A stretch of 64,000 bases of DNA from contig NC_091988.1 of NCBI RefSeq assembly GCF_044704955.1, positions 160,146,001-160,210,000 on the forward strand, read 5' to 3'. Every line of letters starts with the position of its first letter. The stretch's first letter is position 1. Position numbers and translations under genes: made by a program. Under the pieces are notes generated by a model that did not search any database, was not told the origin of the DNA, and saw nothing but the letters and a program-made list of their open reading frames with translations. This document shows, piece after piece, positions 1 through 54,400 of the stretch. The stretch is from Pristiophorus japonicus. Its lineage: Eukaryota.

Positions 1-345
1 GTTACAGTCTGAAATTGTTGAACTCGATGCTGAGTCCAGGAGACTGTAAAGTGCCTAATTGAAAAACGTAAGCTGTTCCTAGAGCTTACGTTGAGCTTTG
101 TGGAACAGTGTAGGAGGCCAAGGACAGAGAGGTCAGAGTGGGAGCGGAGCAGAGAATTAAAATGGCGGGCGACCGAAAGCTCAGAGTCACACTTACGGAC
201 TGAATGGAGGTGTTCCACAAAGCGGTCACCCAATATGCTTTTGGTCTCCCCAAAGTAGAGGAGACCACATCGTGGGCAGGGAATACAGTTAAATACAAGA
301 AGAACGAGTAAATCGCTATTTCCCCTGGAAGGAGTGTTTGGTGTG
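1..345 (-). mobile_element. Decayed non-LTR retroelement fragment (clade uncertain, possibly Penelope-like or L2)
   Basis: Common repeat-type sequence with no intact ORF. Confidence 0.4.
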
Positions 346-2339: not shown

Positions 2340-3207
2340 AATGTTACAGATGTAGTTAAATCAAATTGCTGGTTGAGATACATCTTTGTGTCTTATTCAG
2401 TCCTTAAACCTTTGATGAGCACTTCAGTCCATATTAAACCTTAGATCTGTGAGTGGCAGAACATTAGCTTGTTAACATTCACCTAATTAGTATATGCCAG
2501 ATAATTAAAATCAAGCTAAATTAGGCATCATATATTAAATGTTAGGAAAAACATAAATTCTACATATTGGAAAAGCGGGAATGTTTAGCTTAGACCACCT
2601 TGCTCATATCTGTTACACCTTGTGATTGCAATTACATATTTCCTACATACCGCTTGTCCAATTATGATTTTATTCTTATTTCTCCCACATTTGCTTTTCC
2701 AGAACAAGCAAGACCAGAAAAGTTACTATTTTTAGTGATTTGTGAATACCTTTTTCATAAAAATTGCTAGTTTTCATAGTACACTTTTAGATATGCAGGG
2801 TAGTAATACTGTATGACAGATTTGGATGACTCCCCTGCCCTTAGAAATCTATAAACTCATGTATTTGTCTCAACTTTTATAATATTGTGAAATTATTATG
2901 CTACTAAAGGCTGCTTGACTAATGAATGCTTCCATGGTGCTATGAGTTGTGTTAAATGTAAACATGACATCTAAACCATGATTCTAGGTACTTACTGAGT
3001 CTGTATTTTTATATTTTTTAGAATTTCCTGCTGTTTGCCACAGATCTCACCTACAATTGAATATCAAAGAATTTGCACACCAATGATTCAGTGGTCCCAA
3101 ACTGAAACATTCAGGAAGAAAATTATTATGCACATTTTTCTTTCCAAATGATGTTTGTCTAAAGCAATTGTCCTTGCATTTCATAATACTTTACATGTAA
3201 ACACAAT

Positions 3208-3945
3208 GGCCTGGAATTTGCGGTCAGCAGCGAAGCAAAGGTGTTGGCCCCGAAGTACGCTTCGCGCAAGGATCTCACAATCTCTGTGTCAAGAACTTCG
3301 GCTTTCCCGACCTTCAATTCAAATCAAAAGAGATTAGTGGGGATCCCCTAGTGCAAGCTGCTGTGACATCAACAGATTGTCTAAGCAGCCAATCAAAATG
3401 CAGAATTCTCACAGACAGCGAACAAGGAAGTGGGTAAGCTCTTAAAATTCTAACTTTTAAAAAATGTTGAAGAGAGCAAAACAAAGATTGGGGCTCTCAC
3501 ATGATGGACAAACTTTAAAAATATATATATATTTTTTAAAGGTACTTAAACATTTTAAATGTTTTATTAAAATGGACAAATTTCACACTGCACAGAATTA
3601 AAATTAGATTTTCAGCCTCTTAAACTTTGTTTAGCAGTCACTATGCTGTTAAAACCCCAGTTACACCAAATCCCTTTGGACCTAACTTTCAGTGGGGAAT
3701 TTAACAGCGTAATTACTGCTGAAGAGCCAAAGTTTACGTCAGTTTCCCTAATTTGGGTGATTTCACTGATTGTCGTCTCTCTCAGGGCGGGGGGCATAGC
3801 GCAGCCTGTGAATGACAGTCTGCAACTTCAGGATTTCTACAATAGCCTGTGCATGCTCCAAATCCCGAAGTTGCAGTCAGTTTCAAAGGCGTAATGACGG
3901 CGAATGCTGTTAGTTTGCTGTCAACCTGACTACAAATTCCGGGCC
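3208..3945. mobile_element. Harbinger-type MITE (family shared with 32490-33044)
   Basis: TIRs GGCCTGGAATTTGCGGTCAG / CTGACTACAAATTCCGGGCC, flanks AAT/ATT. Confidence 0.8.
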
Positions 3946-4869
3946 ATTAATGCTTTATATTATTTTACTACAATTACCAAGGTCCGAAGGCTGATAATAA
4001 ATGGATCTGTACAAGAAACTGATCAATATTCCACTTTTTAAAAGTACATAATAAAGGCTACAAATGTTTGCTTCTGTTTCTTTTATGTATTTGTTTACTT
4101 CTATTGCCTCAGTAAATTGAACACAATATCTTGTAGTCTCACTCAATCCTGTACCTATGTTTTCTTGCTGGATACTATTCGCTCCCCAAATCACGGAGGT
4201 TCAGTTGTCCTCAGTATATCATTTCATTTGTATCTGTCATTCTCCATCTCAGCGCTTTATTCCACATGCTTTGTGACCAGTCGTTCACATTGAGGAAGTA
4301 CAGGAAGAGACAATATTTGGCTGACTTTGATCATCGCAGCATATGAGAAGGTGAATTATTGATCATACATTTCATCTTCATGTACAAATATGGGGGGGAG
4401 GGGGAATCATGAGCGTTCTATTTGAGGTGACATTCCCAATATTCTGTGTAAAAGACTCCATGTAAAAGCACGTTTAATCTTTTCCGCCTAGTATTGGCTG
4501 CAGACTTTTATGATGTCTGATGCATCCGATGTAATTCATTCATCAGTTCTCTTTGGTTCAGCTTTATACTTAATCACAGTCACTATTGGCAACCAGGTAA
4601 TAGCAGCCAGCAAATAATTGTGCAGTGGAATTAGCCTTGGTCTTCTCAGTCTCACCCTCTTCTCAATACCATCTCCTAGTTTCAAGACCTTCAGGCCTTA
4701 TTGGGGGACAAAAGAAGAAATATTATGTCTCAGAATGAGGCCACATGCACAGTGTAGTGGAAGGCGGTTGTCTAGCTTGTGCTTGTAGTGAAATTCTTAG
4801 AAGACTATTCCCCTGTGGAATAATAGCATTATGCTATTGATGTGTAATGATTGAATTTATTTGTTCACA

Positions 4870-5520
4870 ATATATGGGCAATGCTGATAAAGCTTCATTT
4901 TAATTGTCCATCCCTAGTTTCCCTAAGAAAGTTGAGGTGTGCCTCCTCCTTGAACTGCTGCAGACTTTGTGATGTTGATGTTCCCACGATGATGTTGGGC
5001 AGGGAATTCCAGGATATTAATACAGCAAAAATGAAGGAATGGTAGTATATGCCCAAGTAAGGACTGTGTCTGCCTTGGAGGTGAAATTGGAGGTGATGGT
5101 GTTCCCATGATCTTACTGCTCCTGTCCTTCTTAGTGGTTGCAGGACTAGGAGGGGCTGTTGAGGTTAGCTTGGTAAGTTGCTGCAATGTATGCTGTAGAT
5201 AGTATGGCAACCAGAGTATGTCAGTGGTGGAGGTGGATGACTACAGAGTCCAGTGGTAGGGGCACCGATCAAGGGACTACTTGCGTGGATGGTATCACAC
5301 ATCTAGTGTTGTTGCAGCTTCCTGCATGAAGGTGAATGGTGAGTATTCCATGTAAGCTTTGTAGATGATGGAGCGGCTCGTGAGCCACTAATCAGAGTTC
5401 CCAGCCTTTGTCCTGCTCTTGTAGCCAGATTGTTGATAGAGTTGGTCCAGTAAAGCATCTGGTCAATGGTAATCCCCAGAATGTTGATCGTAGTGGAGGC
5501 TCAGCGATGGTGGTGCCAAC
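4870..5520 (-). mobile_element. Old 3' fragment of the LINE family seen at 16130-18690
   Basis: Degenerate similarity to 16180-16830 (cttgaac..cag, ttcccatg...ctgc..ctgtccttct). Confidence 0.7.
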
Positions 5521-5777
5521 GAACTAAAAATGCCCATCCTCTATATCTTCCATGCTTGCACAATCTGTCAAGGTATGAACATAAGTGCTGATGTATAAAA
5601 TAGTGGAGGAGCTTGACTCAGGCTCTCCCTTCACTCTTCCCACCCCAGGATAATCATCACTCTGCCATTAGGACAGTATTGCTGCAGGCCTGGGAGGAGG
5701 CAAAGGAAGAAGACTTGAGGGAGCAACTCGGTATTATCACCACTGTCAGTGACAAGCCTAATGTGAATGTTAACTGT

Positions 5778-6235
5778 GCCAGCTGTGGCTCAGTGGGTAG
5801 CACTGTCACCTCGGAGTCAGAAGGTTGTGGGTTCAAGACCCACTCCAGAGACTTGAACACAAAAAATCTCTTCAGTGCAGTGCTGAGGGAGTGCTGCACT
5901 GTCAGAGGTACTGCCTTTCAGATGAGACGTTAAACCGATGCCCCGTCTGCTCTCTCTAGTGGATATAAAAGATTCCATGGCATTATTTTGAAGAGCAGGA
6001 AAGTTATCCCCAGCGTCCTGGTCAATATTTATCCCTCAATCAGGATAGCAAAAAAACAGATTATCTGGTCATTATCACATTGCTGTTTGTGGGAGCTTAC
6101 TTGTGAGCAAATTGGCTGCCACGTTTCCTACATTACAACCGTGACTACACTCCAAAAATACTCCTTTGGCTGTAAAGCTCTTTGAGACATCCAGTGGCTG
6201 TGAAAGGCGCTATATAAATCCAACTCTTTTTTTTT
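5778..6235 (+). mobile_element. tRNA-derived DeuSINE (SacSINE1-like)
   Basis: A box tggctcagtggg, B box ggttcaag, Deu-domain-like gatgagacgttaaaccg..., L2-type tail ggcgctatataaat. Confidence 0.8.
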
Positions 6236-9674: not shown

Positions 9675-11314
9675 TTGAGGGCACCCGCCTTCGACGAGAC
9701 GGAGTTACCTGCCCTTCTCAAGAATATTACAGAGAGGTACACTGAGCTAACGAAGGTTGGTCATGGAAAGCCCCCCCCAAAGGAGTACAACAGGATATGG
9801 GACGAGATCGGAGAGGCTATGTACTCCACAAGTACCATGGTATGCACCGGGGAAAGTTGCCGTAAGAGGTGGAACGACCTGGTGAGGGTAGCAAAAGTAA
9901 TGATTTTATTTATGCACCCCCTACGTGCCATGTACCATGTAAATGTAGGTTCAGTGTCACACGGATGATGTTATTTATCTTAAGGTTTTGCCGATGTATT
10001 CGTGCTTTCAGGCAATGACAAGATGATCAACGCAGTGTTTTTTAATGTGTATGTGTGTGTGTGTGACCCTGTATGTCTGCGATGTTAAATGGATTGAATA
10101 TTTTTACTTTCATTTACTTTACTTTCTGCAGAAGAAGACATCTGCAAAAGCAGCTGATCAGCGGCTTATGGGGGAGGAAGAACCCACAACGCAAGAGCCA
10201 TTGACAGAGATAGAGATCCATGCCCTGTCGCTGGTCGGGGATAGCAACTGTGCCACTACCGGCATTGGAACTGACCCACTCACACAGGATGGTAAGTTGA
10301 ATACAATCCCCGGTCTGTGTTGCAGTTCTGTCATGTCAAGTAATGTAACTGTAACTGTAATGTTGGGCTCATGTAATGTAAGTTTGTTTCACTATAATGT
10401 TGGACTCATGTGATGTACTGCAATGTTGGGGGCATGTAACGCAATGCATATATGTATTGTCTATCTGCGATATGTAATGCAGTACTGCAACAGTGGTGGA
10501 CATTTAAGTAAGACTGCAATAAGTCACTGTACTATGTACTCATGTAACCCTGACCGTCCCCTGGTGACAAGCATTTTTAAATGTTGTTTTGTACTTCCAG
10601 ACTCGGACGATTCAGAACATACCAACACAGAGAGACCAGACGACAGATCCACTGCCTCCAACTCTGGCGTCACCCAGTCCTCTCCTGACTTCACCACTGT
10701 CAGAGATGATGAAAACGAAGAGGAAGAGGAAGAGCCACTCATCCTGGAGCCAGTGGAGGTGGAGGTGGGGGTGGAGATGGAGGAGGATACACCAGCTCCA
10801 TGTGGGCCAACTGGAACATCCTCCACCACCGAGTCTATATTCAGGGGATTCCCCCATGGCTCCTCTGATTCTGTGAGACCAAGTGCTGTGCAGCAATATA
10901 CCCCCAGTGTTGCAGCGACGGAGGTTGGTGCAGAAAAGGTCATTTGCTGCACGACAGATAGTCATGTACCAGGACATGGTGCGTCTGTGGCAGGCCAGCG
11001 TCGACATAGGTCGAGAGCTGCTCAAGGCCATGGCTACGATAGCCGCAAACATCGCAGCTCTATCAGAACGGCAGTCGGAGGATAGTGTCATGTCTGATCA
11101 CCGAGATGGAGCAGACCGCCGACCCCGTCGAAGCCATGTGGCAATCGACGGGATGGGACATGGCGCGGAATCCCCCCGTGCCATAGTAGTCAGGTCAAAA
11201 GCACCTGAGGGTGAGGAGCTGCCAGCAGCTTCCAGCCCTGAAGCCGTGCCTTCCACATCACGAGCTTCTCCTGAGGCCCCATTTATTGCGCCTGCAATGT
11301 CTGACCCCCAATAA
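9675..11314 (+). pseudogene. Harbinger Myb/SANT-like DNA-binding protein gene, 3 exons (about 9675-9896, 10132-10291, 10601-about 11314), frameshifted
   Basis: RAPAFDETEL..LL...WDEIGE...CRKRWNDL trihelix motif; splice phases 0 and 1 join correctly; acidic linker and coiled-coil tail. Confidence 0.8.
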
Positions 11315-39400: not shown

Positions 39401-42400
39401 AAATGTAAATGTTGAGTCCCTAAACATTTAAACTAACTCCAGGAAAATGAAGAAATACTCAGAGGAGCAACCTGTCACTGCCTCAGACATTGCATTGAAC
39501 TGTCTGAGCCTTGCTACTTCTTTCCAGAATCTAGTTGGGCACTAACTCCATATTTATACTGCACTTTTACAGTTGCTGCAAATGGAAGCCATTTCACAGA
39601 AATACTGAAAATACTGTTTTTACTTTGTCAGTATCACAGCACCGTGCATGAATAGAACTCCTCTCCAACTCACAGGAAGTGTACTAATTCCACGCTAGCA
39701 GATGTAACGTAACCTGGATCTAAACGTTCTGATCAGTTACGATCTGAACATCTGACATCGGAGTCTCAAGCTACTCTCAATCTCTTCAGTTGGCAAATGT
39801 TAAGTGTCCAGATCAGATTTTGTACAGGCTAAAATTAGTTCTTTATACTTCAATCATATGCACAAAAGGCAAGAATTGAACAGGGTTAACTAGGTGGTGA
39901 ATTGAGATGTAGCCTTATTGATCCCAGGGAATGCATAAACAATGGCCTAGGTCCAAAACCTGGCCTGTATCTCATTTACCTATTGCCCTGTTTTTATTGC
40001 CCTCTAGTGGCTTCTCTGTCTCCCAATACATTAAATTCAAAATCCTTCACAATTCGCTTCATCATCCTATCTTGCCTTGCCCTCTGCAACCTCCTTCAGC
40101 CAAATTTATCAGCATGTTCTTCTGTCTGTGGCCTCCTTTGTATCCCCCACTTCAAATTCTGTGACAGAGCTACTACTCTCTGGAACGCTCCAATCCCTTC
40201 AGCTTGCAAAATATCTCCCCATCTTCAAAAATGTCGTCTTCCCCACCCTCAAATCTCGATGTTTGATCATGCCTGCAGTCACCTCTTCTATTCCACTACT
40301 CTTGGCGTATGTTTTCATCCATATAATATGCCTTTCCTACATTTTAAAGGTGCTAAATAAAAGCTAATTCTGTTGGTGGACTGTGTTCTTTAATTGTCTA
40401 CATTTCATCACAGGTATACTAGAGAAGCATACTTAGAACTTGTTGAACACGTGCGCAGGATCATCCCAGGTAACTTCACCTTCAGGATTTTATAATAATG
40501 CCTTACTACAATATGTGGTATTATTGAATTTAGAAGTTTGTGCATTCAACTTTTTTAAATTTTGCTTCTCTGAAAGTAGAGAGATCTAGGTATGCATGTT
40601 TTTTTTTAAAAATAAGTTAAGATAGAACTTGTCTGATGGCCACAGGCAGGCTCTTGTGATCTGAAGATTAGTTAGGATACAGTAAATTTTGTTTTAAAGG
40701 TGGTGGTTGAATTTGTGGTCCCTGGAAAGCCAATTGTTTATTATTTGTAGAATGCTATCTGATACGAAGAATTGTTGAGCTTGGATGTCAAAAGCAAATG
40801 AAGCTCCTGATGGCTGTGATCACTGGTCACTTGTTATCTAAAATGTTAGAAATTGTTTAGCTTAATTTCCCAGCCATTGAGAATCCTTCTTATTTCGGGG
40901 GGTTTGCTGGATGTGAGCAATGTTGGCATGATCACATTTATTGGCTTCAGATCAATGGAGGTAGGGGAATTGAGGTGTGGAATACCCAATAGGGTATTGA
41001 AAAATAAATTGAGGGGTGGGGGGGTGGAATTCTGTCGTTGGGTGGGGAGGAGGTTTCTGTAAAAGGGGAAATGAAGTGAGATATGGGTATCATGTGAAGG
41101 CCAGCTGCAGCCAGTGGGAGATTGGGGCAGGAGAGACTTGAGAAGGGGGTGGAATTTGTCAGCCAGTGGGTGTTAGATCAGGAAATGCAGCCACTGGGAT
41201 GGGGAGTGGGGTGGGGTTAGAAAATGTGACCTCAGCAAGAGGAGGGGCTGAAATCTTTTTCCGATGAAGTTGCAGGCACCTAAATTCTTGTTGGGCTGAG
41301 AGCCAATAAATTGACTGCGGGAGGGTCTGAGGGTGAAACAATTCCACAGTGGGGAGGGGGTGCTTGAGGTCTGAGATTTGAATTCGTGAGGTGGGCAGGA
41401 TTAGGGCCAAATTCTGGCTGAGTGACGGTGGGCTATAAAATAGTTCTTTTGTGGGTGGATGTTGGGTCTGACCCCATTGAAGCCAAATGTTCATGTAATG
41501 TTACACTTCTAGCGCCACCTGCAGTTGCAGTACTATTCAAGGCTACATGCTGTTTTTAATTTATTATAGCCGGCTTACTGTATTTATATTTAATTTATAT
41601 TTTCCTGTGAATGTACTTTATAAAAACAGGTGTAAGCTTAAGTAGCGATTTCATTGCTGGATTTTGTGAGGAGACTGAGGATGATCACTTTCAGACCATA
41701 TCTCTTCTTAGACAGGTCCAATACAACGTGGGATATCTTTTTGCCTACAGCATGAGAAAGGTGAGCTACACAGACCATTCAATCTTCCTGATATATTTAG
41801 AAGAGGTGGCAATGGCGGAGCATTGAATTTTGTAATAGCATATCTCCATTACTACCATTCTTTTCATTTGTAAGTTGCTTATTCACCTCTGTTTTAACTT
41901 GGCCTATTCACAAAAAATATAAGTGACTTTAGGATGCATAATTTAGGCACACTTATTTAGATCCTTCACTAGCTGTATTCTATTTCAAAACCAGCTCGCA
42001 AAAATAGACTTCTTCCTAAAATGCCTGAGCTTGCTTGTTCTTTAGCCCCATTCCATTCCTCAGCAGAACATGCCCCCATAATTTGGTATTTACTGATTAA
42101 ACCACCTCATTTAGAAAGTTATAGCATGGGAAAATTAAAAAGTCATGGGCGGCCACTTTTCTGATTTTACAATTCAGGCTGATTGTAAAGCCAAATTACA
42201 GGAAGCTTTAAATTGCAGTTAATTTTACTCTTCCCAAAACGTAGATAATTTTCCATTCCTTCATATTGTGGCCTGTCAAATTTGCAACAAAAAGAAAAAG
42301 TTATTCTGAGGGAAGTAGCTAATGTGATGTATAATTCACTGTATTCTTTACCGTCATCTAAACCCCTCAGTTTGCTGTGGACATCATTGCTGTCAGTGGT

Positions 42401-45400
42401 TAGCCACAGAAGCCTACAATAAAGTACATTGCCTTGTAAAAAGTCATATTGTAATTTTTGTCTTTTCTAGAAGACACACTCATATCATAGACTGCAGGAC
42501 AGTGTTCCTGCAATTGTGAAGCAGCGTCGTTTGGAAGAACTCATCGCTGTGTTCCGAGAGGAGGCAGCTAAACTCAACTCTGAACTTATTGGGACTGAGC
42601 AAGTTGTGCTAGTGGAAGGGGTAAGTAGAAGCAATCTTAAAGATGTTTGAAATGGGAGTGTATTTCTTGGAATAAATTTCATCAGCAAGAAATAGTGAAA
42701 TAGTAACATGATCCAGATCAGAATGCTGTGCCGAAAGTTTAAAACAAAATGTAATTCACATATATATAAACACTTGTGTTTATATGAATTAACAGCGTCA
42801 TGGAGCTTACAAAAATGATGATCTGTCCTCTGACTTTGCGAATACCTCATGTCCCTTTACATCCCTGTGCAAAATATTGGAAAAAATGTCTCGATTGGGA
42901 CGTGTATCCAAAGAACAAGTGAACTAACTGGGGATGGGACAAAAATAACAAGCAAAAGTCTGCAGGTCAATCAGAGAAAAGATGATTAAGGACCATGATT
43001 AAGGAACTGAAACAGAAAATGATAAAAACGATTACAGGTGTGCTATGTTGGTCTCCCTGAACTTCACAATCATTTTGTTTAATTGAAGTATCTTTTCTTT
43101 TTTAGCACACACATCTTTAAGTTAACCAATTTTTTCCTTCAGGATCTCCAGAAAGCAATTCTTCCATTCATCACCACCAACTTCATTTTTGTCCTCCGCC
43201 ACGGTATCTCTCTCAGCCTCTACCCCCTGCGATATTGGTCCTTTTGACAGCTCAGAAAGCTGTTCCTTAACTTTCTTGATTTCTGCCTGTAGCTGGTGGA
43301 CGTTGTTTTGAGTATCTTCATTCACTATGGCCGTATTTTTGATTAACTTAGTTCTACAAGCAAACTGAAGTGTAGAGAGTGTTTCACTAAAACACCTCGA
43401 TCCAAGGTGAACACTTGCAATGATGTAGGTCTTTGCATTTCCTCCAAGCGAGTCCCTCAAAAGGAACGTCAGCTTAGAATCTCTAACAGATGTGTCTGTT
43501 TTTTCCATTAGCCACGTAGATTCCGCAGGTGAGGGAGGATTCCTATAGGGATGCCCGCCTCAACCGCACATATCGTTTCTTTCGGACCCTTACTTCAGGA
43601 TAGGGGTGGCCATACCCTTATCGAGGCATGTGTGGAAGGGCAGTGAGAAATTAACACAGGGTCTGCCGGACAAATGAAGGTTGAGGTGGTCCTAGAGGAA
43701 GGGGATTCCCCTCTTCAGAGACAGTACCCCATCAGTCCAGATGCATCAGGATCAGTTACTGAACAATCAGAGATGAAAGCAGTGGGAGAAGCTTGTTCAA
43801 AAGCATTTAAAGTTTCTGTAGGAATGGGCTGTCTCAGAACTGATGAGATGTTCAGTGAAAAGCTCAAATGTGCGAGTTACAAACATGATCTTAAAGGATG
43901 CGAAATAGAAGTTGGATCGTTGTAAATGTCGATCGTTACAAATTCCGAAGGCTGAACTGAAAGAAGGACTGACTATTCAACATTTCCGTTATCCTTTACT
44001 TTATATTGTTACACTTCTCCCACAAAGCAGAGGAAATTGTTAAAAACTGCAGAGGGCAACAGACTTGGTCGAAGACACCGATTGCGAGTTTACATTTCTG
44101 AATGTAAACATCATGGAATTCAGTCGAAAGCATCAAAAATTGAAAGTTGACTTTTAAGTGAAAATGGATATGGTGATCACAGACCAACGGATTTTAAAAT
44201 GGCATCCTGAGAATCTGCATCTGCAGCAATCCTACTTTGACCCTAATCGTGCTGCTATTTGGAAGAAGGAAATGCCGAAATGGAGTACAAGATTTCAACA
44301 GCTACAGAGTTTGAATCAAGCAATCAAATTAGACATGTAAGCTGGTGGGAGTCATTGTTCGGATGGAGTCCGACGGCAACTAGCGTGACGAACACAATGA
44401 TACACCCTGTCCTTATGCTGGTGCTGTTTCAGTTGATTGTGCTGGTCATTTTGATTTATTGGAGAATGCTGTTGAACGAGCTCAAATGGCCATACAAATG
44501 TTACCCAGATAAGACCTGCAGAAAGGCAAAGAGAATAAGTGGTGGAATGTGGGAGCGCAAGCCTGCATTTCTGATTCCATTTAGAAGTCTTCCAAGGGAC
44601 AGAATCCCTTTCAACGTCCATCAACGTGGTGCTTAAAACCCATAGCATCTTAAGTCAGCAAGTTTCTCCCAACGTCCTTGCACCAATGATGGTACACTCA
44701 TGTGCATTTGAAAACAAAACAGCTAAGCCATACAAGACTCCAATCCTTTCCTGACTTTGCTTGCCTGTCCAGGATGTCTAACTTGTAAGACAAAGTATGG
44801 CCAGACTCATCATTGGCACCTTAGAAAATAGAGTAAGTAATTTCAGAAGTTCATTTTAATTTCAAACAAAAATCAATGTACTTTTATTTCATCCAGAGCC
44901 ACGGTTTAAATTATGCACTTCTCTCTGTTCAGGCATCAAGACACTTTACTTAAGAACAGAGCACATTATCTGTGAAAACTTGTTTCAGCCACTGGGAAAT
45001 GCTGGAGAGGGGGCAAATGTGAATGACACCCTCTTCCCTCTTTCCCTGTTGGAAAGTGCTTGCTCTCTATTTGGCACTGATCCCCCAGATAGTATGGCGA
45101 GATAGGAAACTCGGTGTGTGGTAAATTGGGCAAGTGCATCCATAGCATACCAAGTGCTGCACCACATTTACAATGGTTTCCAGTTTTCACATTGTATGGA
45201 ATAAGGAGTATTAGGACATGCTACAGTCCAAACCTTTTGCTTGTTTCCATTTCTCAGATGAAAGTGAACAATGAATCAGATGAGGTACTAAGTTAGCTCA
45301 TATAATTGCTAAAGTGTGTCTAAACAAGCGGTAGGAGGCCTTTTGTCTGTTGTTGTCCCCCAAGATGACAGCCCGTTAACAGCCTCACATTGTCCACTAA

Positions 45401-45411
45401 TTTACATACCG

Positions 45412-45447
<36 letters not shown>

Positions 45448-48400
45448 TATGTATCTATATCAATAAATACACTCTCTTGGGAATATCAATGTGTCCCACT
45501 GTACTATTCTGATTCGCTAGCCAATGATACTTAGGTGGTTGCAACCAAGCTAGCAGGAGGTAGGGAAAAAAAACAGCCTTTCTACTCCTGATTGCCATCT
45601 GGAAACCTGTGCTGAAAGTCTGTGTGTGTGTGTTCTCGATGATCAAATGTCAGACACCATTCAGGCCACTCGGGCAGGGTACTGGAGGGCTGCTAGTTCT
45701 CAATTATACCCTTGCAGTCATCCTTTTCAGGAGAGATTGTTGGAGGGGAGGGGGGTGCGGGGGCGGGGGAAATATGGGATGGAATCCAACAAAAGCATGG
45801 CACGGTCAGTGAAAGATTTTATCTGCCGCCAGTCCTTGGCACAATACTGAAGTCAGGAATTCAAAGGAACTCTTAGAATTCAAACTCCAACTTGGAGTGC
45901 TGCAGCAGTCTGAAAATGATCACCGAAATGGGGTGATGGAGACTCGCAAGTTATTTTTGAGTGCCTGCTTGGGTATTTTAATTTCATTGTGTACTGCTGA
46001 GAGTCAGCGGCAAGATGTTGCAGTACAATTACCTGGTAGGAATTGTCCAAATTTAAAATTCCCCCCAAACCAACCAATCAAAACAGTTACTGGCCATGTG
46101 CAGAGACATAAAAAGCGAAACCGCAATACTTTGATACTAATTAAAGGATAGTTAAGGACAGTAATCCAGTGGTGACAAAAATATACCACTTTCAAACTGT
46201 TCAGTGGAATAAAGAGACAACCATGCCACAAGCTATAGGCTTCGGGAAAACTTTAGCATTAGGTAATTGAAGTTAGTTTAATATAAAATGAAGCACCTCA
46301 CTGGAGGGTAGCTATGCACAGTGTAAGGATTGCAGCAATTGTGACGTAATCAGTTTGACACCATCAGCTTTGCTCAAGGATCCGATACGATGCTTCAAAT
46401 CCGATTGGCGTTAAGAGGTTAAAAAAGGGCAGAATAGGTTTGATAGCACCTAGTAGAACGTGAAATAGAAAAACCCACACACATCTACACATTATTCCTG
46501 CACGTTTTCATTCTATTCCCTCAGCACACAGTCTGACATATCGAGCAAAGTAAACTTATTCAGGTCATGTTTCTTGAGCTCTTTTTAGCTTGGAGTTCTC
46601 CAATTTCAGCACATTCACTTCCTCTAGGAGTCTAACATGGTCCTTCTTGAGCTTAACCAAATCCTGGATTTTTTTGGTGCAAGTTCTGATGTCCCACCAA
46701 CTTTCCATTCTCCAAGGCTGACCACTTGTTCCCTCAGAGTTTCAACTTTCCAAGTAAGTCTTTCTTTCTCTTCACAAGCAGATTCGAGCGCTGACCAAAA
46801 CACTTCCTTGTCATTGAAAGCTTTGACTTCTAAACTCCTGGTCCGCTCCAGCTCCTCCTGAAACTCTTTCATGGAGCACTGAATTGCTTCCAGCGTTGTG
46901 GTTTTCTCCGTCAAGTCAGCTTCCACATTGGCCAGTGCTGCTTCCTTGGCCTTTAATTCTTCTATTAATTTCTTCTCTGGCTCGTTCGGATGCTGCGACT
47001 CGGTGATAGCATTGCTTTTCTGTGCATCTATATGGCTTTCCAAATTCCGACAGTGTCTCTCCAAAGGATCCGTTTCCAGCCGAAGATTTTTTGATTTGCA
47101 TAAGTGGCTCTTGAGTTGTAGAATTTATTCATTCTTGGCCGTCCTTTCCAAATCCATCTCTGACAACAACATTTCCAAGGTGGCCTGGGAATGCCCTTCG
47201 GTCATACAATTCCCTCTGCTGCAACTCCAGGATTCTGACGGGAAATGCTTGGAAAGTCGAAGGGGTTCTTGGAGTCTGTGGCAGACCAGCAGAAATCTCT
47301 GAAGGATTCAATCTGCCTCAGTTTATTTTGTATTCACAAATTTCAACGTTTTTCCCCTTCAGCTGGTCCTGAAGCTCTTTCACGGTTGTTGCATTTTTCT
47401 CAGCTTCTTCCTGCATCATCGGCAATATCGCTGCCCGTTTCTGGGAGTACTCTGTCAGCTGTTCGAGCTGCTGGGTGGCATTGGTCAGATCTTCACAAAC
47501 CATCTCCATCTGCACATTATAAGAGTTCTCCTTTCTTTCTGCAGCCTCTCTCATCTCCAGGATTTCTTTCTCCTTTCTTTCGATAATGGCTTTGTTTTCC
47601 TCCTTAGCAGCCATAACAGTGCTGTACTTCAACCTGATATCCTCCAATTCCTCGGTCAAGACAGAAATAGCTTCAGTTTTCTGACTACATGAGCTTCTCA
47701 TTTTCTGTATTTGATTCATCAGCACGATTACCACTTCCTTATCGGTGGCATTCTTCTTCTCCAGATCAGTAATAACCCTTTTGGCATCCGCCAGGCTCTG
47801 TTCCAGATTTTTCAGCTCCGTGGCCTGTTGCTCAGACTTCAACAATAGTCCAGAAGACTGCTTCTTTAACAGATCTTTTTCATCCAAAGCCTTCAAAAGC
47901 TCTTTGGAGTTGTTCTCTATGTCCTGTTGAAGTTGTGAGCCAAGTTTTTGGTTTAGTTTCTTTTCAGTTTCTAAAAGCTCCATTAAAGAACTAATTTCAG
48001 TCCATAATGTGTCAGCTTCATCCTTCATTTGTTCCAGATTCTCACACAGCTGATCAATTTCATACGCTTTGAACTCCACAACCTCCTGTCGATTATCGTA
48101 AGCGTCTTGGAGTGGCCGCTTCTCTTCCAATATTTTCTCATGCACCAGCCCGAGTTTATCCAACTGTAACTGGACATTGATGAACTGGTCAGAAAGTTGA
48201 CTGCTCTGCATCTTGTTCAATTTTGTAGGAGCTGCATTCATTCTTTACGGTCGTAAGTTCCTTGTCAGCTGAATGCAGCATAACACATATGGACAGTTCT
48301 AATCCCAATGATGATCCCCTTTTCAATTTCATATCTGTATCAATAACAGAATAACAATGATGCGTCTCGTGTGCAATTCCTGTCTATCACACCATGTCAT

Positions 48401-51400
48401 ACACTCATATCTGTGTCACAATGTGTTTTTAAACAAAGCAAGAAGAAACCAAGGCAGTCATTTTGAATATACAGGTGCAATGTCCTGAATCCAGAACTCC
48501 GAAAACCAGAATTGTCCAAAAACCAGACATTTTTGAGGCAAAACCCAAAATCTGGCATGGATTCAGTTGAATATTTTAGATTTTAGACAAGGAAATCAAG
48601 TCTGAAATCCAAAATCCTCAACCGAATCCGTGCAACGTTTTGGCAAATTTCAGATCTCGCCGCTCAAAACCCGGCACGGATTCAGTTGAGAATTCCGGAT
48701 TTTAGACTTGATTTTCTTGTCTGAAATCCAGAAATCCCCCAAAACCGGAACGGATTCGGTCCCGAGGATTCCGGATTTCGGACTTTGTACCTGTATAATA
48801 AAACCAGTCACAATATTTTTTTAAACAAAGTAAGAAGAAACCAGGACTGTCATTTTGAATATACAAAGAAACACTTCAGAAACAATAAGTATTGGAGCCA
48901 AAACACCATATTTGAACTTTTAAGAACTAATCCTGTGTTTATCAGCAATTAGACTTTTGATGGCTTAAAAGGGGATACAGCTTCACTTTAGCAGCATATA
49001 TTTTCAGCATAATGCTCCTTTGCTTATTAAATAGTGTCATCAGACTTAACATGAACAATGTCAAAGCGATACACTAATATAATACAGAATGTAAAAGCAG
49101 TACGCTGTTGGCACACTATCTGCTACGTGTGTTTGTCTATCCATCTGCAGTGGGAAAAGCACTTAATTATTTCCCAGGAGCCAATCAAAAAATAATATTT
49201 CACAGCCTCTGTATGGAATTCTCTTGCAAACTACTGTTTCCAAATTCAATAATTTCTGATATGCACCCATCCTGTATTCCCACGCTAGTCCTCGTTTCCT
49301 CTCTTTCTCTCTCACAATCCACCTCTCCTCCCCCCCCCCCACCCACCCCCTTTGGAACACTATAACCTAAGTCTGCCTCTCAATACTTCCTGCTGTCCCT
49401 ACTTCCCCATTCTCTTCCAGCATGCGTGTCTAATCCTCTACTTTCTATTTCATTTCCATATCCTCTTTTGAATTCTAAAAAAGTAAGCCTAAAAAGGTAA
49501 GATTAAAAAGTGAGGACATGGGTAATAAAAATATATAATAATAAAAAGTGATGATTTTTATAGAAAAAGCAAAGCACTCAATTTGTTCTCAAAACACTGG
49601 TGATATTTCCAGAATAAAATATGAATGCAATCTGATGTATTTAGTCACTAAGTCAGCACCCCTGATAATACATTGTTCATTCCGTAGCATAATGCCCTTA
49701 TGAAGCAAGGATCCTCCATACACTGCCCAAATTGCCATAGCAGATCTGCTGATAATATAATCAATACAGTTGTGTGCACTTTTTGTTTATCATATTTTGT
49801 TCACTGGTTTAAATTTCATATTCATAAAACAAGAAAAATCAGAACTGAAGAGTAGGGAACGTATGAATCAAAAGTGAGGAAAGCGACTAGAAAACAACCA
49901 GTGAGGAATTACTAAGGATGTGTGAAAACTGTCTATCCTAAATGGCCAGTCAGGAAAACATACTGATAAAAGTAAGAAGCAGCAAGCCAATGAAATTAAT
50001 CCAAAGAATTTGGTTTTAACCGACATCTCAAATCTTCTTCCAGCATAACATTTACCGGTAAAAGTTATGTTTAACACAAACTCACTTTAAAAAGATTTTT
50101 TATTTTTTTAAGTTCAGCAACACTAAATAAAATGGTTAATAATAATAATAATCATCATCGTCATCATCATCATCGCAGTCCCTCGGAATCGAGGAAGACT
50201 TGCTTCCACTCCTGAAGTGAGTTCTTTGGTGGCTGAACAGTCCAATACGAGGGCCACAGACTCTGTCACAGGTGGGAGAGACAGTTGAGGGAAGGGGTGG
50301 GTGGGACTGGTTTGCCGCATGCTCCTTCTGCCTGCGCTTGACCTCTGCACGCTCTCGGCATTGAGGCTCGAAGTGCTCAACGCACTCCCGGATGCACTTT
50401 CTCCACTTAGGGCGGTCTTTGGCCAGGGACTCCCAGGTGTCAGTGGTGATGTCTCACTTTATCAGGGAAGCTTTGAGGGTGTCCTTGTAACGTTTCCGCT
50501 GCCCACCTTTGGCTCGTTTGCCGTGAAGGAGTTCCGAGTAAAACACTTGCTTTGAGAGTCTCGTGTCTGGCATGCGAACTATGTGGCCTGCCCAGCGTAA
50601 CTGATCAAGTGCAGTCAGTGCTTCAATGCTGGGGATGTTAGTCTGAACGAGGACACTGATGTTGGTGCGCCTGTCTTTCCAGGGGATTTGTAGGATCATG
50701 CGGATTCATGGAGTTGCACCATGAGAAAACATTTTATCCTGAGGCTCAATTTGGAGCAGTGATTGGAGTTTTAGTTGGACTTTGCTGTCGTCGTTGTGGG
50801 AGCGCAAGTCTGCATTTCTGAAATGCTTTGCTTCGGCCGCAGTCTGGAGAAATCAAAAGGGTTAAAAGTTGGAAGATTCAAGATTGGATTAAAACAGGCT
50901 GCTAGACGATATGGGGTCATATATCTTGAGTATTTGAGTGTAACTTGTTAGTATGCGAATAATCATTTGATGACATCGTCTGTACGTTAAACGATCTGGT
51001 TCGTGTATAGTAATTCAGAAAGCTGTTAGCCGTGATTTCAGGACAATGCCATTTTGATTCTACATCATCTGCATGTTAATTGTCTAAATGTACTATGCAA
51101 AGAAATAAGCGTTTAAAGGCTTTTTTGGTATAAAGATGAGAGTTTGACACTAGACACTGGAATCTTGGAAGGTGTGTGTCACAAGCAACCATGGAAATTG
51201 GAAGAGCTGCCTTTGTGACGTGTCTCAGTAACTTTCATTTAGTATGAATGTCTGAATAAAAGACCTGATCCTGCATTTACTACAACTTTGTGTGTGTGTG
51301 TAATTCGACGTTTAAAGCAACGAAGTGAAAAGAGCACGACAGCCGTACAAGAGCAATCACATTCAACATATTTTCAGTTATGCAGTTGTTCTTCCATCTA

Positions 51401-54400
51401 GTCACTACCTCTGTCCTTTTTCCTTTTTAATGCACTCTGAACTTTCTCAGCACTTAATATGGCGATAGCTCCTTTTTTCTGCTCTTCGGGTGGCTGTTTC
51501 TTTCTTTTATGTTGTGGTTGTTGCTGTATTATTCTTTCATTTTGTGGTTAAGGCTTTCTTTTCTGTCTGATGGTGCTGGTAGCTTTCAGCTTTCTTTCTA
51601 CAGCATCTTCTGCTGGCCCTGATGTGGCAACTTTCTCTGTCCCAGGTTTAGTTATTTGCAAGCCCGAGGAATAATCAACATCAACATCACCACCGCCACC
51701 ACCAGCATTGCTAACACACCCCCGACAGCTATCTTGCCAAGACCACCGTCCCAGTGCTAGTAAAATGCAAGACTTCCACTGTTCTCAAACTCTAGACCCC
51801 CTCACCCCACCTATGCTGTCAGAATTCAGGAACGATCCAAGTATTCCTCCATCATCCCCGAGTGCTCCCTGATCCTAGGATATGCCTGACTTTTTTTTTA
51901 AACTACACTCAGTTTTTGCCAGTACTGACATCCACCTGTAGGGTGGTGTCAGACAGACTCTCTCCCCTGCAGTGCATCAACAACCCAATGCTGCTAACCC
52001 GCTGAGGCCCCATTCACCATGAGTACTTACAGATGGCTACCCTTCATCCAGTACTTTCGTATCCCATCCCTTACTCCACTCCTTCCATGGAACAGCTTCC
52101 TGGTTGGGTATTTCCAATGTTTAAACCTGTCATTTTTGGACAGAAGGTGATGCCAAAAGAATTTGTGAGAGGGAAAGAAACAGAGAAACAGTTACAGGAA
52201 GAGATGACCCAATATCACAGAGGATCAAATGTTGTAATACATTCTCTGTTGCACGGCATAATGCTCTCATGTCAATATAAAATTGCATATCCCCCAATGA
52301 AGCATCAGCGATGACATGTGAGATCTGCCAAAATTATTGGTTAAACATTTTTTTTGTTGATTTAGTTCTGAGTACAATCCATATAAAAATTCTTCATTGG
52401 TTAAATGCAATTTAATATTTTTTTAGCTTTTTTTTGCAAGAGTTAAACAGTGCTGTTTTTCACCGGACAAAAATTATTTTCCAATAGTATTTGTAGTGTA
52501 GAGCACAGAGATATTTCAGAAAACTGCACCCCTAACTGATGGCACGATTTTCCAAGAAGCTCCACAGTGGCTTGCACATCAGTTTGAAGTTGCTGCTCTT
52601 TGTAGTGAAGCTGCCACCAGGTATTACCTTTAATTGGCATTAAGGGAGGCCTTGTTCAAAGGTCTCCTAAGCTGGTAGGAAAGCTGACATGTTCAAAAAT
52701 TAAATTTATAGTAAGTTCTTCTTATGATAAGGGAAGAAGGAACAAAAAGTACTTTCCTTCAGCTTTTCTTTCCCTTTTAATAACATACATTTACAGGGTT
52801 GAGTTGATATTAGTATTTTTTGTGAATGTTTGCCCTAAGCATTTGACTATTCTGACTTTCTTCTTATCCCAGCAGTTAATAGTGTGGGATATTTTCCCAA
52901 CTCTGCCTTTTGATAAAATGCGCAATAAGAGAATGGGGCTAGTTTGATACTGTAAAACGTAGCTATTGAAAATGTAACCTACAATGTACGGCAAGCATTT
53001 TATGCCTGTAACCAATGTTCTCTCTAAGCTGCGCGCGAGCTCGGCCGACAGCAAATTTAAAGATACAGCGCAAAAAAAAAAATTTTAGAGGGAACATTGC
53101 CTGCAACTGTCCTTAGATTTTGTGTCCTAGTTTTAAAACCAATTGTACAGAAACCCATTACCAATTGTTTAATTTTGTCACACATTCGCAGGCTAGTAAG
53201 CGGTCGACGGTGGAATTGTGTGGAAGAAGTGATGGTAACATTAAAGTAATATTTCCTGCTGTGGAGATACCATGCGACTGGTCATCTGGAATGCTTGCTC
53301 CTATCAGACCCGGAGACTATATATCAGTGCAAGTAAGTGAATAACTGAGGTTTTGTAGGAATACTCCTGATGTGCATTGCATGTTTGTGAAATTATGTCA
53401 CATTTTTGTAGAATACAAAATATGCAGTGCAAGCAAAACAGGTATTACATTAATGGTTTTTATTCGTCAAACTGTTTTTAAGTTATGGGGAAGCAGAACG
53501 TCTGCGTCTGTATATCAAACTATTCTATTAATACAACAGAAAATATTGCAAGAATACTGTTAGCCAAATCTCTTGAGGCTTGTTAAAAAATCTTTGAAAC
53601 AATGACCATTTTATAAAGAAAATGTTTACTTTGTTAATGGAGACCTAAACATCTTGTTTTAGAGAGCATGATATGACCTACCACTGCATTACTTCGAAGA
53701 GGCTGTAACAACAGTTTGTGCATCTAATACTGCACCTGCCAGTGTAGCACTGATAACATTACTGCATCAGTGTGCAGTTACTGTTGCCCTATTGTTTATT
53801 AGGAATACCTCCGCAGGTCGGGATGTAAAAGAGCTGGAGCGCCGGGCCCTGGAACATCGTGGCCCCCCCGACCTGCAAGAGAACAGCTCCGCAGGTCGGG
53901 CTATAAAAGAGCTGGAGCGACATACCACTTCAACCTCCAGTGCGAGCTGCTCCAAGTGTGCGACAATTTTGAGATGGGCGACTGGATGACATCATCAAAA
54001 CCCTGGTCGCCGTTTTGGAGTGTGGGTAGGAACATCGGCAGGACCCAGGTACAGAGGAGTGGGAAGGTTGGGGCGGAGCGGATGAGTGGCAAGTGTTTGT
54101 GGCGAGATGCGGTGAATGTTTATGGCGATGAGCGGCAAGAGATTGTGGCGGAGGTGCGACAGATGAGGGTACGGGGCCCAGAAGAACCGAAGGCCCAGGT
54201 GCAGTACAAGCCTGCTCACACTGTAATATGTGAGCGCGCTAGGTCCGTGCAGCAGAGTAGGTCTCCAGTCGTCTTGGTTAATCCTTGCCACTGGACCAAG
54301 GCCTAGCTCTGTCAAGCCTGTGTAGTGGCTAGTGTGCAACGGTCACCACGTTGTTAAAATTCACGCACGGGTATCTTCCACCCCTCAATTGGAGTTCAGG

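Follow-up and report, generated by a model that had tools for sequence, protein, structure and literature searches.

Structure of the insert

We analysed a stretch of 64,000 nucleotides from the genome of Pristiophorus japonicus (GCF_044704955.1, NC_091988.1, positions 160,146,001 to 160,210,000; hereafter the window), in which the host gene CDK5RAP1, encoded on the plus strand, carries a composite insert made of two pieces of KIF15 cDNA and one piece of an endogenous retrovirus-like element with long terminal repeats (LTR/ERV). It occupies intron 11, between coding segments 11 and 12 of the 13 in CDK5RAP1 (exons of the 5' untranslated region, UTR, uncounted), where a preliminary description made from the sequence letters had also placed it. 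The 50-amino-acid exon at 42471-42620, which matches proteins named CDK5RAP1, is the 11th of these segments. The positions of all features are summarised in Table 1, and KIF15 cDNA positions are counted from the ATG of the parental gene throughout.

Read along the minus strand of the window, the insert consists of KIF15 cDNA 2435-6176, an antisense LTR/ERV piece of 1.06 kb, and KIF15 cDNA 914-1437. These three blocks follow each other without a gap, because the LTR stub and the C-terminal coding piece are linked by 1.9 kb of KIF15 3' UTR, which the preliminary description had overlooked. Together they amount to 5.3 kb, with 4.2 kb of KIF15 and 1.06 kb of ERV. The preliminary description had reported a direct fusion of a motor fragment to a retroviral remnant, which we confirmed, the ERV piece abutting both KIF15 pieces; the scrambled order was likewise borne out, with the C-terminal/UTR piece preceding the motor piece on the minus strand and cDNA 1438-2434 missing. 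The limits of the fragments had to be revised: the motor/neck fragment, originally given as 43145-43517, is present at 43032-43514 and is 113 bp longer on the left, and the second fragment, originally given as 1.7 kb at 46565-48284, does contain the KIF15 C-terminus and is 3.7 kb long (48286-44563) with its 3' UTR.

Table 1. Coordinates of the insert, its joints and the neighbouring features in the window (PPT, polypurine tract; PBS, primer-binding site)
Feature	Position	Strand	Description
CDK5RAP1 coding exon 11	42471..42620	+	Host gene, upstream of the insert; protein matches
10-mer at the left junction	43027..43036	-	Equals parental cDNA 6180-6189; overlaps the end of the motor piece; suggestive only
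KIF15 motor piece	43032..43514	-	cDNA 914-1437; motor end and neck; parts of coding exons 9-13
Putative chimeric exon	43511..44832	+	ERV piece and antisense KIF15 UTR; consensus donor 44832/44833
LTR/ERV internal 3' part	43516..44574	+	Internal region, PPT and first 27 nt of the 3' LTR (44548-44574)
12-nt microhomology	44563..44574		LTR nt 16-27 (plus) and KIF15 3' UTR 6165-6176 (minus)
KIF15 3' UTR copy	44563..46491	-	
KIF15 C-terminal coding piece	46492..48286	-	cDNA 2435-4281; coiled coil and C-terminus; coding exons 20-35
Whole LTR	50795..51350	+	Same ERV subfamily; without PPT before it, PBS after it or 5-bp target duplication
CDK5RAP1 coding exon 12	53192..53338	+	Acceptor of the chimeric splice

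Comparison with the parental KIF15 gene

The parental KIF15 gene has 35 coding exons and lies on contig C5, distinct from the contig of the window (C12). KIF15 is thus multi-exonic in this very genome, as had been assumed for vertebrates in general, and alignment to it confirmed the suspected spliced-mRNA origin: all 19 parental introns of the copied spans are absent from the window copy, 18 of the joins being read directly and one falling within a 9-bp deletion. The window copy derives from spliced mRNA.

The motor piece crosses four exon junctions, carries deletions of 2 bp and 39 bp and two stops, and was recognised by the Pfam Kinesin model (E=1.4e-14), its best protein matches being shark KIF15. 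Alternative splicing was rejected as the cause of the 39-bp gap, which has no clean donor. The C-terminal coding piece crosses 15 junctions (the one inside the 9-bp deletion included), contains frameshifts and stops, and extends to about 46492, followed by about 1.9 kb of 3' UTR that breaks off 55 nt short of a parental AATAAA. The two pieces lie on the same strand and do not overlap each other, and the parental stretches absent from the copy are cDNA 1-913 and 1438-2434. Over 750 aligned codons the copy shows frameshifts and 4 new stops, with nonsynonymous (dN) and synonymous (dS) divergence of 0.062-0.065 and 0.135-0.173, respectively. It is a dead, single-copy pseudogene.

The ERV piece and the neighbouring LTR

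The middle piece belongs to a non-autonomous LTR/ERV family, since other copies have paired LTRs, a PBS-like tract, a PPT and 5-bp target duplications; five measured copies were 3.8-5.4 kb long. The PBS-like tract appears complementary to tRNA-Trp. The window piece aligns over its full length to copies on C5 and C6 and ends 27 nt into the 3' LTR, and no family sequence was found to the left of 43516 within 40000-52000. Other copies have the same shortened interior, so the internal deletion is family-wide and not a scar of KIF15 capture. Tandem proviruses sharing their middle LTR (LTR-interior-LTR-interior-LTR) were also seen in this family, at L089:1926-8734 and in L131.

The piece had been labelled a gag-end/pol/env/PPT remnant. 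Its identity as an LTR element and its PPT stand; the gag, pol and env labels are weakly supported, the protein evidence in the window being a TLV_coat match under the cut-off (E=0.13). The upstream open reading frame of another copy gave a Gag-like lead in the Atlas, and searches of Pfam, PDB and protein databases returned no retroviral families for the ERV proteins.

The only whole family LTR near the insert lies at 50795-51350, 2.5 kb outside it and on the plus strand like the ERV piece. Its ends are exact, and its flanks match at 2 of the 5 target-duplication positions, while all 14 properly bounded solo LTRs of the family match at 4 or 5 of 5 (out of 29 loci, less 9 joined to internal sequence and 6 whose 5' ends were misplaced). 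Its two best matches among 22 internal-bearing loci are also the two best for the 3' end of the window ERV piece, and in an LTR tree it falls into a starred 28-row clade with those two loci (37 rows, chosen for likeness and leaving out 10 of the 22 3' LTRs and 5 of the 29 LTR loci; bootstrap not settled). By chance, an LTR of this family would be this close (within 8 kb, same strand) with a probability of 0.3% at 2172 copies and 1.3% at 10000. This LTR probably shares the history of the insert, either as a template next door or as part of the same aberrant integration.

Junctions of the insert

At the ERV/UTR joint, LTR nt 16-27 overlap cDNA 6165-6176 by 12 nt in the antisense direction only. 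When the first 60 LTR bases were compared with the KIF15 cDNA, the longest match was 12 nt in antisense and 9 nt in sense; among shuffled 60-mers, 1.2% had a 12-nt match somewhere in the cDNA. The left host junction contains a 10-mer identical to cDNA 6180-6189, 3 nt past the UTR break (null probability 0.001 for one region and about 0.02 over all junction regions; noticed post hoc).

The outer ends lack the poly(A) tail and target duplication of a typical LINE product, as the preliminary description had stated. Neither end has an A-tract, the copy running into the ERV instead, and the longest word common to the flanks is 6 nt and lies away from the junctions, though decay may have erased a duplication.

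Age of the insert

Kimura two-parameter (K2P) distances of three KIF15 stretches to the parent were 0.080, 0.085 and 0.076. Amino-acid changes were polarised, with 60 assigned to the copy lineage, 25 to the parent lineage and 13 to neither, and the resulting copy-lineage divergence of about 0.044 (dN 0.06 scaled by polarised changes) lies within the range of the ERV family. In that family, LTR-LTR K2P distances were 0.052-0.107 (12 of 22 loci), the window ERV piece differed from 22 copies by 0.071-0.113, and the end branch of the window LTR in the tree was 0.036, against a median of 0.05. By this coarse estimate, the KIF15 insert is likely to be about as old as the ERV burst.

The last coding exon of the parental gene contains a 21-bp in-frame tandem duplication (C5:3801886-3801927), which is absent from the window copy and from at least 6 other shark and ray proteins; the copy therefore likely predates the duplication.

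KIF15 sequence elsewhere in the genome

Searches for further KIF15 copies covered the C-terminus, the motor piece, the UTR and the missing middle in 5.9 Gb of genome, the 5' 300 residues lying outside them. The C-terminal piece returned the window, 16 parental exon matches and one short fragment on C1 (17/17 candidates scored), the motor piece the window and 5 parental exons (6/6), and the UTR the window, the parent and one fragment on C8 (3/3). A protein search with the missing middle returned 7 parental exons and one fragment on C11 (120/455 candidates scored).

The C1 fragment comprises 169 bp across one exon join, is 96% identical to the parent and lies in a high-copy repeat (C1:78333812-78333980, L026). 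The C8 fragment comprises 169 bp of UTR, is 97% identical to the parent and lies in a different repeat (L067:1495-1663); it falls within a single exon, and a DNA source is possible for it. The C11 fragment, about 198 bp across an exon join and 88% identical (L152:1503-1703, about 65181180-65181380), derives from a part of KIF15 that the window copy lacks. Comparison with the empty site, available in paralogous repeat copies for the C1 and C8 fragments only, revealed a loss of roughly 8-14 bases and microhomology of 4-5 nt. These two fragments are not daughters of the window copy, with which they share 0 and 1 changes, compared with 10 and 17 shared with the parent. No sequence of the ERV family was found near the three fragments (within 20 kb, 4.5 kb and 3.2 kb). 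As three independent fragments without poly(A) or duplication, they indicate that KIF15 patches recur in this genome.

Both the C1 and C8 fragments measure 169 bp by alignment, near the length of a nucleosome plus linker, which may be chance. A metagenome scan returned one distant KIF15 exon: a contig (L155:3001-3147) encodes a stretch 60% identical to the coiled coil, which probably stems from animal DNA present in that sample.

Putative chimeric splicing to CDK5RAP1 exon 12

One 238-nt contig from a single sequencing run (X5, library type not on record) joins 44625-44832 to 30 nt of CDK5RAP1 exon 12, with lengths that fit exactly. The donor is AGA/GTAAGT, already present on the antisense strand of parental KIF15, and the acceptor is the normal one of exon 12. 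Across the ERV piece, several contigs of X5 agree fully with the window; how specific they are to this locus varies, since the best of the other copies fetched are 81-99% identical over those stretches. The run also contains parental KIF15 sequence from past the UTR break.

If exon 11 were spliced to an acceptor at 43512, 43520 or 43529, translation would soon meet a stop. A frame encoding only the C-terminus could start at an in-frame ATG lying 12 codons upstream of the donor, though the block holds 32 ATGs in all. The chimeric product is most likely a non-coding or decay-prone by-product. It would resemble the Type I antisense retrocopy exons of Baertsch et al. (2008, PMC2584115), where an antisense intronic retrocopy supplies a host exon, and differs from them as a putative chimera of ERV and antisense 3' UTR seen in one contig.

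Origin of the insert

We consider that the insert arose, with a probability of about one half, as a one-off patch of cDNA from several templates at a germ-line DNA break in CDK5RAP1 intron 11, similar to RT-product-mediated double-strand break repair (RMDR) or to class 2 templated sequence insertion polymorphisms (TSIPs). The new strand, the plus strand of the window, would have copied KIF15 RNA or cDNA from 1437 to 914 before moving onto ERV DNA as its template; this would likely have been an adjacent provirus, with the LTR at 50795 as its remnant, or the cDNA of that provirus. Having run 27 nt into the LTR, it would have re-annealed through the 12-nt match to the KIF15 3' UTR, copied 3.7 kb of KIF15 and joined the far end of the break. 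The copy would later have decayed, and a latent donor in the antisense UTR would allow the ERV/UTR block to splice to exon 12. The absence of poly(A) and of a duplication, the truncated templates and the microhomology are features that the insert shares with RMDR and class 2 events.

Ono et al. (2015, PMC4516963) describe RMDR in mouse zygotes, where breaks are mended with truncated ERV and spliced mRNA pieces, also with several of them one after another and microhomology at the joints. The window insert shares with these the ERV piece without full LTRs, the spliced mRNA without poly(A), the serial arrangement and the microhomology joint, but it is a natural, old event in the shark germ line, measures 5.3 kb, contains one mRNA in two permuted pieces and has a microhomology of 12 nt, as against 1-5 nt in RMDR. 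With class 2 TSIPs (PMC5110952), which come with a small loss at the target, it shares a distant template, microhomology and the lack of duplication and poly(A). The C1 and C8 fragments fit this class closely, whereas the window insert is much larger, multi-template and old. A LINE-made processed pseudogene would likewise be an intron-less copy of a spliced mRNA, but by the hallmarks given in PMC5131818 the insert departs from one in having no poly(A), no duplication, a truncated 3' end and a permuted order. Our literature search found no study of retrocopy mechanisms in sharks and none treating KIF15 together with CDK5RAP1 and a retrocopy or pseudogene. The insert would provide a natural shark germ-line example of cDNA patching, so far shown mainly at engineered mouse breaks and in human polymorphisms, and four independent KIF15 insertions in one genome suggest that cDNA capture of a non-LINE type is common there and could be counted genome-wide.

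Several observations weigh against a patch. The insert is far above the median of 191 bp reported for experimental patches in PMC5110952, and its outer junctions show no clear microhomology. The subfamily of the neighbouring LTR is large (28 of the 37 rows, which were chosen for likeness), and 5 of the 29 other LTRs agree with the stub at 26 or 27 positions, so that the 26/27 of this LTR is unremarkable. A dS/2 of 0.07-0.09 would put the KIF15 copy somewhat before the ERV burst, and the age estimates are too coarse to tell one event from several in the same period. The splice in the last step rests on one contig of a run without a recorded library type.

A less likely alternative places the capture inside an ERV particle. 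The plus strand would have stalled 27 nt into the 3' LTR and primed, through the 12-nt match, on co-packaged KIF15 mRNA; the ERV(+)/KIF15(-) product would have circularised (914 to the ERV interior) and opened between 1437 and 2435, with 1 kb lost, insertion without concerted integration, and an LTR-only piece left 2.5 kb away. The microhomology, present in the antisense direction only and the longest for the first 60 LTR bases, agrees with such priming, and the order of C-terminus/UTR, ERV and motor is the outcome expected of one opened circle. The nearby LTR with exact ends but 2/5 duplication matches and the matching ages of the pieces point the same way. This scheme involves several inferred steps, and the permutation is inexact: an exact circular permutation was ruled out by the 997 nt missing between the two KIF15 pieces. 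The 10-mer at the left junction (cDNA 6180-6189) is unexplained by it, none of the three other KIF15 fragments lies near this ERV family, and the family, being non-autonomous, would have depended on a reverse transcriptase donor. A pattern search for an LTR start followed by non-LTR bases returned the window only (exact pattern, which misses diverged copies); no second LTR matching this pattern breaks off at the same base, and a break-point hot spot at LTR nt 27 was rejected within that scope. If true, priming by the plus strand in antisense would add a route to gene capture by LTR elements.

A known form of capture by such elements is LTR-mediated retroposition, described by Tan et al. (2016, PMC5131818) and exemplified by HERV-K/FAM8A1, in which the cargo replaces part of the interior and both LTRs are kept. 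Both share an mRNA truncated at both ends and the lack of L1 hallmarks, as well as microsimilarity between element and mRNA, seen here at the ERV/UTR joint (12 nt), with no clear overlap at the ERV/motor joint. In the insert, the ERV is in the middle, KIF15 lies outside it in the opposite orientation, and no LTR pair encloses the cargo, which places the insert outside LTR-mediated retroposition. The ERV reads on the plus strand and KIF15 on the minus strand, whereas RNA-to-RNA switching would be expected to leave both on the same strand; ordinary template switching during minus-strand synthesis thus would not give an antisense cargo. Our literature search found nothing pertinent on opposite-orientation capture in plus-strand synthesis, though older retroviral work exists on deletions with inverted insertions; the supplements of PMC5131818 may contain antisense cases.

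It is also conceivable, if unlikely, that the insert was built stepwise: a truncated retrocopy came first, a provirus integrated nearby, and later duplications and deletions guided by microhomology shuffled the pieces, removing poly(A), the target duplication and most of the provirus. The LTR of the same subfamily 2.5 kb away would then be the trace of that provirus, the left-junction 10-mer could be the 3' end of the old retrocopy, with the motor-plus-ERV block looped in, and dS puts the KIF15 copy perhaps a little before the ERV. At least three later events within 8 kb would be needed, with break points 55 nt from the parental AATAAA and exactly within the 12-nt ERV/KIF15 match, and no trace of an A-tail or duplication is left at about 5% divergence. 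A LINE twin-priming inversion was ruled out, as both KIF15 pieces lie in one orientation on one strand.

More doubtful is a functional sequel to antisense capture, in which a fossil permuted circle has supplied an exon through which CDK5RAP1 acts as a source of trans-antisense or small RNA against KIF15. The putative chimeric exon contains 270 nt complementary to the KIF15 3' UTR (91% identical, 29/250 perfect 21-mers). If the exon is real and regulated, it would possibly link CDK5RAP1 splicing to KIF15.

The preliminary description had proposed a mobile composite element carrying KIF15 as cargo and dispersed in the genome, which we regard as very improbable. The ERV part does belong to a family of hundreds (675 candidates), and LTR-made retrocopies can be re-mobilised in flies (PMC5131818). 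Against this, genome searches with the KIF15 pieces gave only the window, the parent and short unrelated fragments that derive from the parent; no LTRs enclose the insert and no 5-bp duplication flanks it. Identical junctions at multiple loci, which had been named as the sign of such a family, were not seen: the junction query aligned at no other locus to the left of the ERV start (40/675 candidates scored), the LTR break-point pattern matched the window only, and 0 of 72 fetched ERV/LTR locus records contained KIF15 (records partly overlapping). The rejection is limited by the 40/675 ERV candidates scored, the KIF15-only searches (C-terminal, motor and UTR) having scored all of theirs. With KIF15 pieces and junctions found once and ERV loci without KIF15, the mobile-family reading is unsupported; as it stands, the locus holds a dead single-copy pseudogene and no new mobile element. 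Of the proposed link to the ERV, a role at formation is plausible in view of the 12-nt microhomology and the matching ages, and the notion of KIF15 as the cargo of a dispersed family is not supported.

An assembly artefact is the least credible explanation: run X4 has contigs across both host junctions, left and right, and the ERV/UTR joint is spanned by an X5 contig, of a different sample and study, that shows no differences. The pieces also have 7-8% substitutions of their own, as well as frameshifts and exon joins present nowhere else, even though none of the contigs listed spans the motor/ERV joint (43515) by 31 nt on both sides and the DNA runs may stem from the assembly's own sample. No RNA run was among those listed as containing the sequence. 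Most of the KIF15 sequence had no coverage in runs X5 and X6, and X7 gave none at all, which counts neither for nor against.

Other features of the intron

The outer flanks of the insert are unique host DNA, and additional captured mRNA in the flanks or in the 2.5-kb spacer was ruled out, these regions holding only unique sequence or old repeats. A short element with inverted ends (about 48472-48795) lies between two 59-bp direct repeats, 90% alike, within 48415-48865. Just before the lone LTR, positions 50151-50704 contain a LINE-like piece about 85% identical to other copies.

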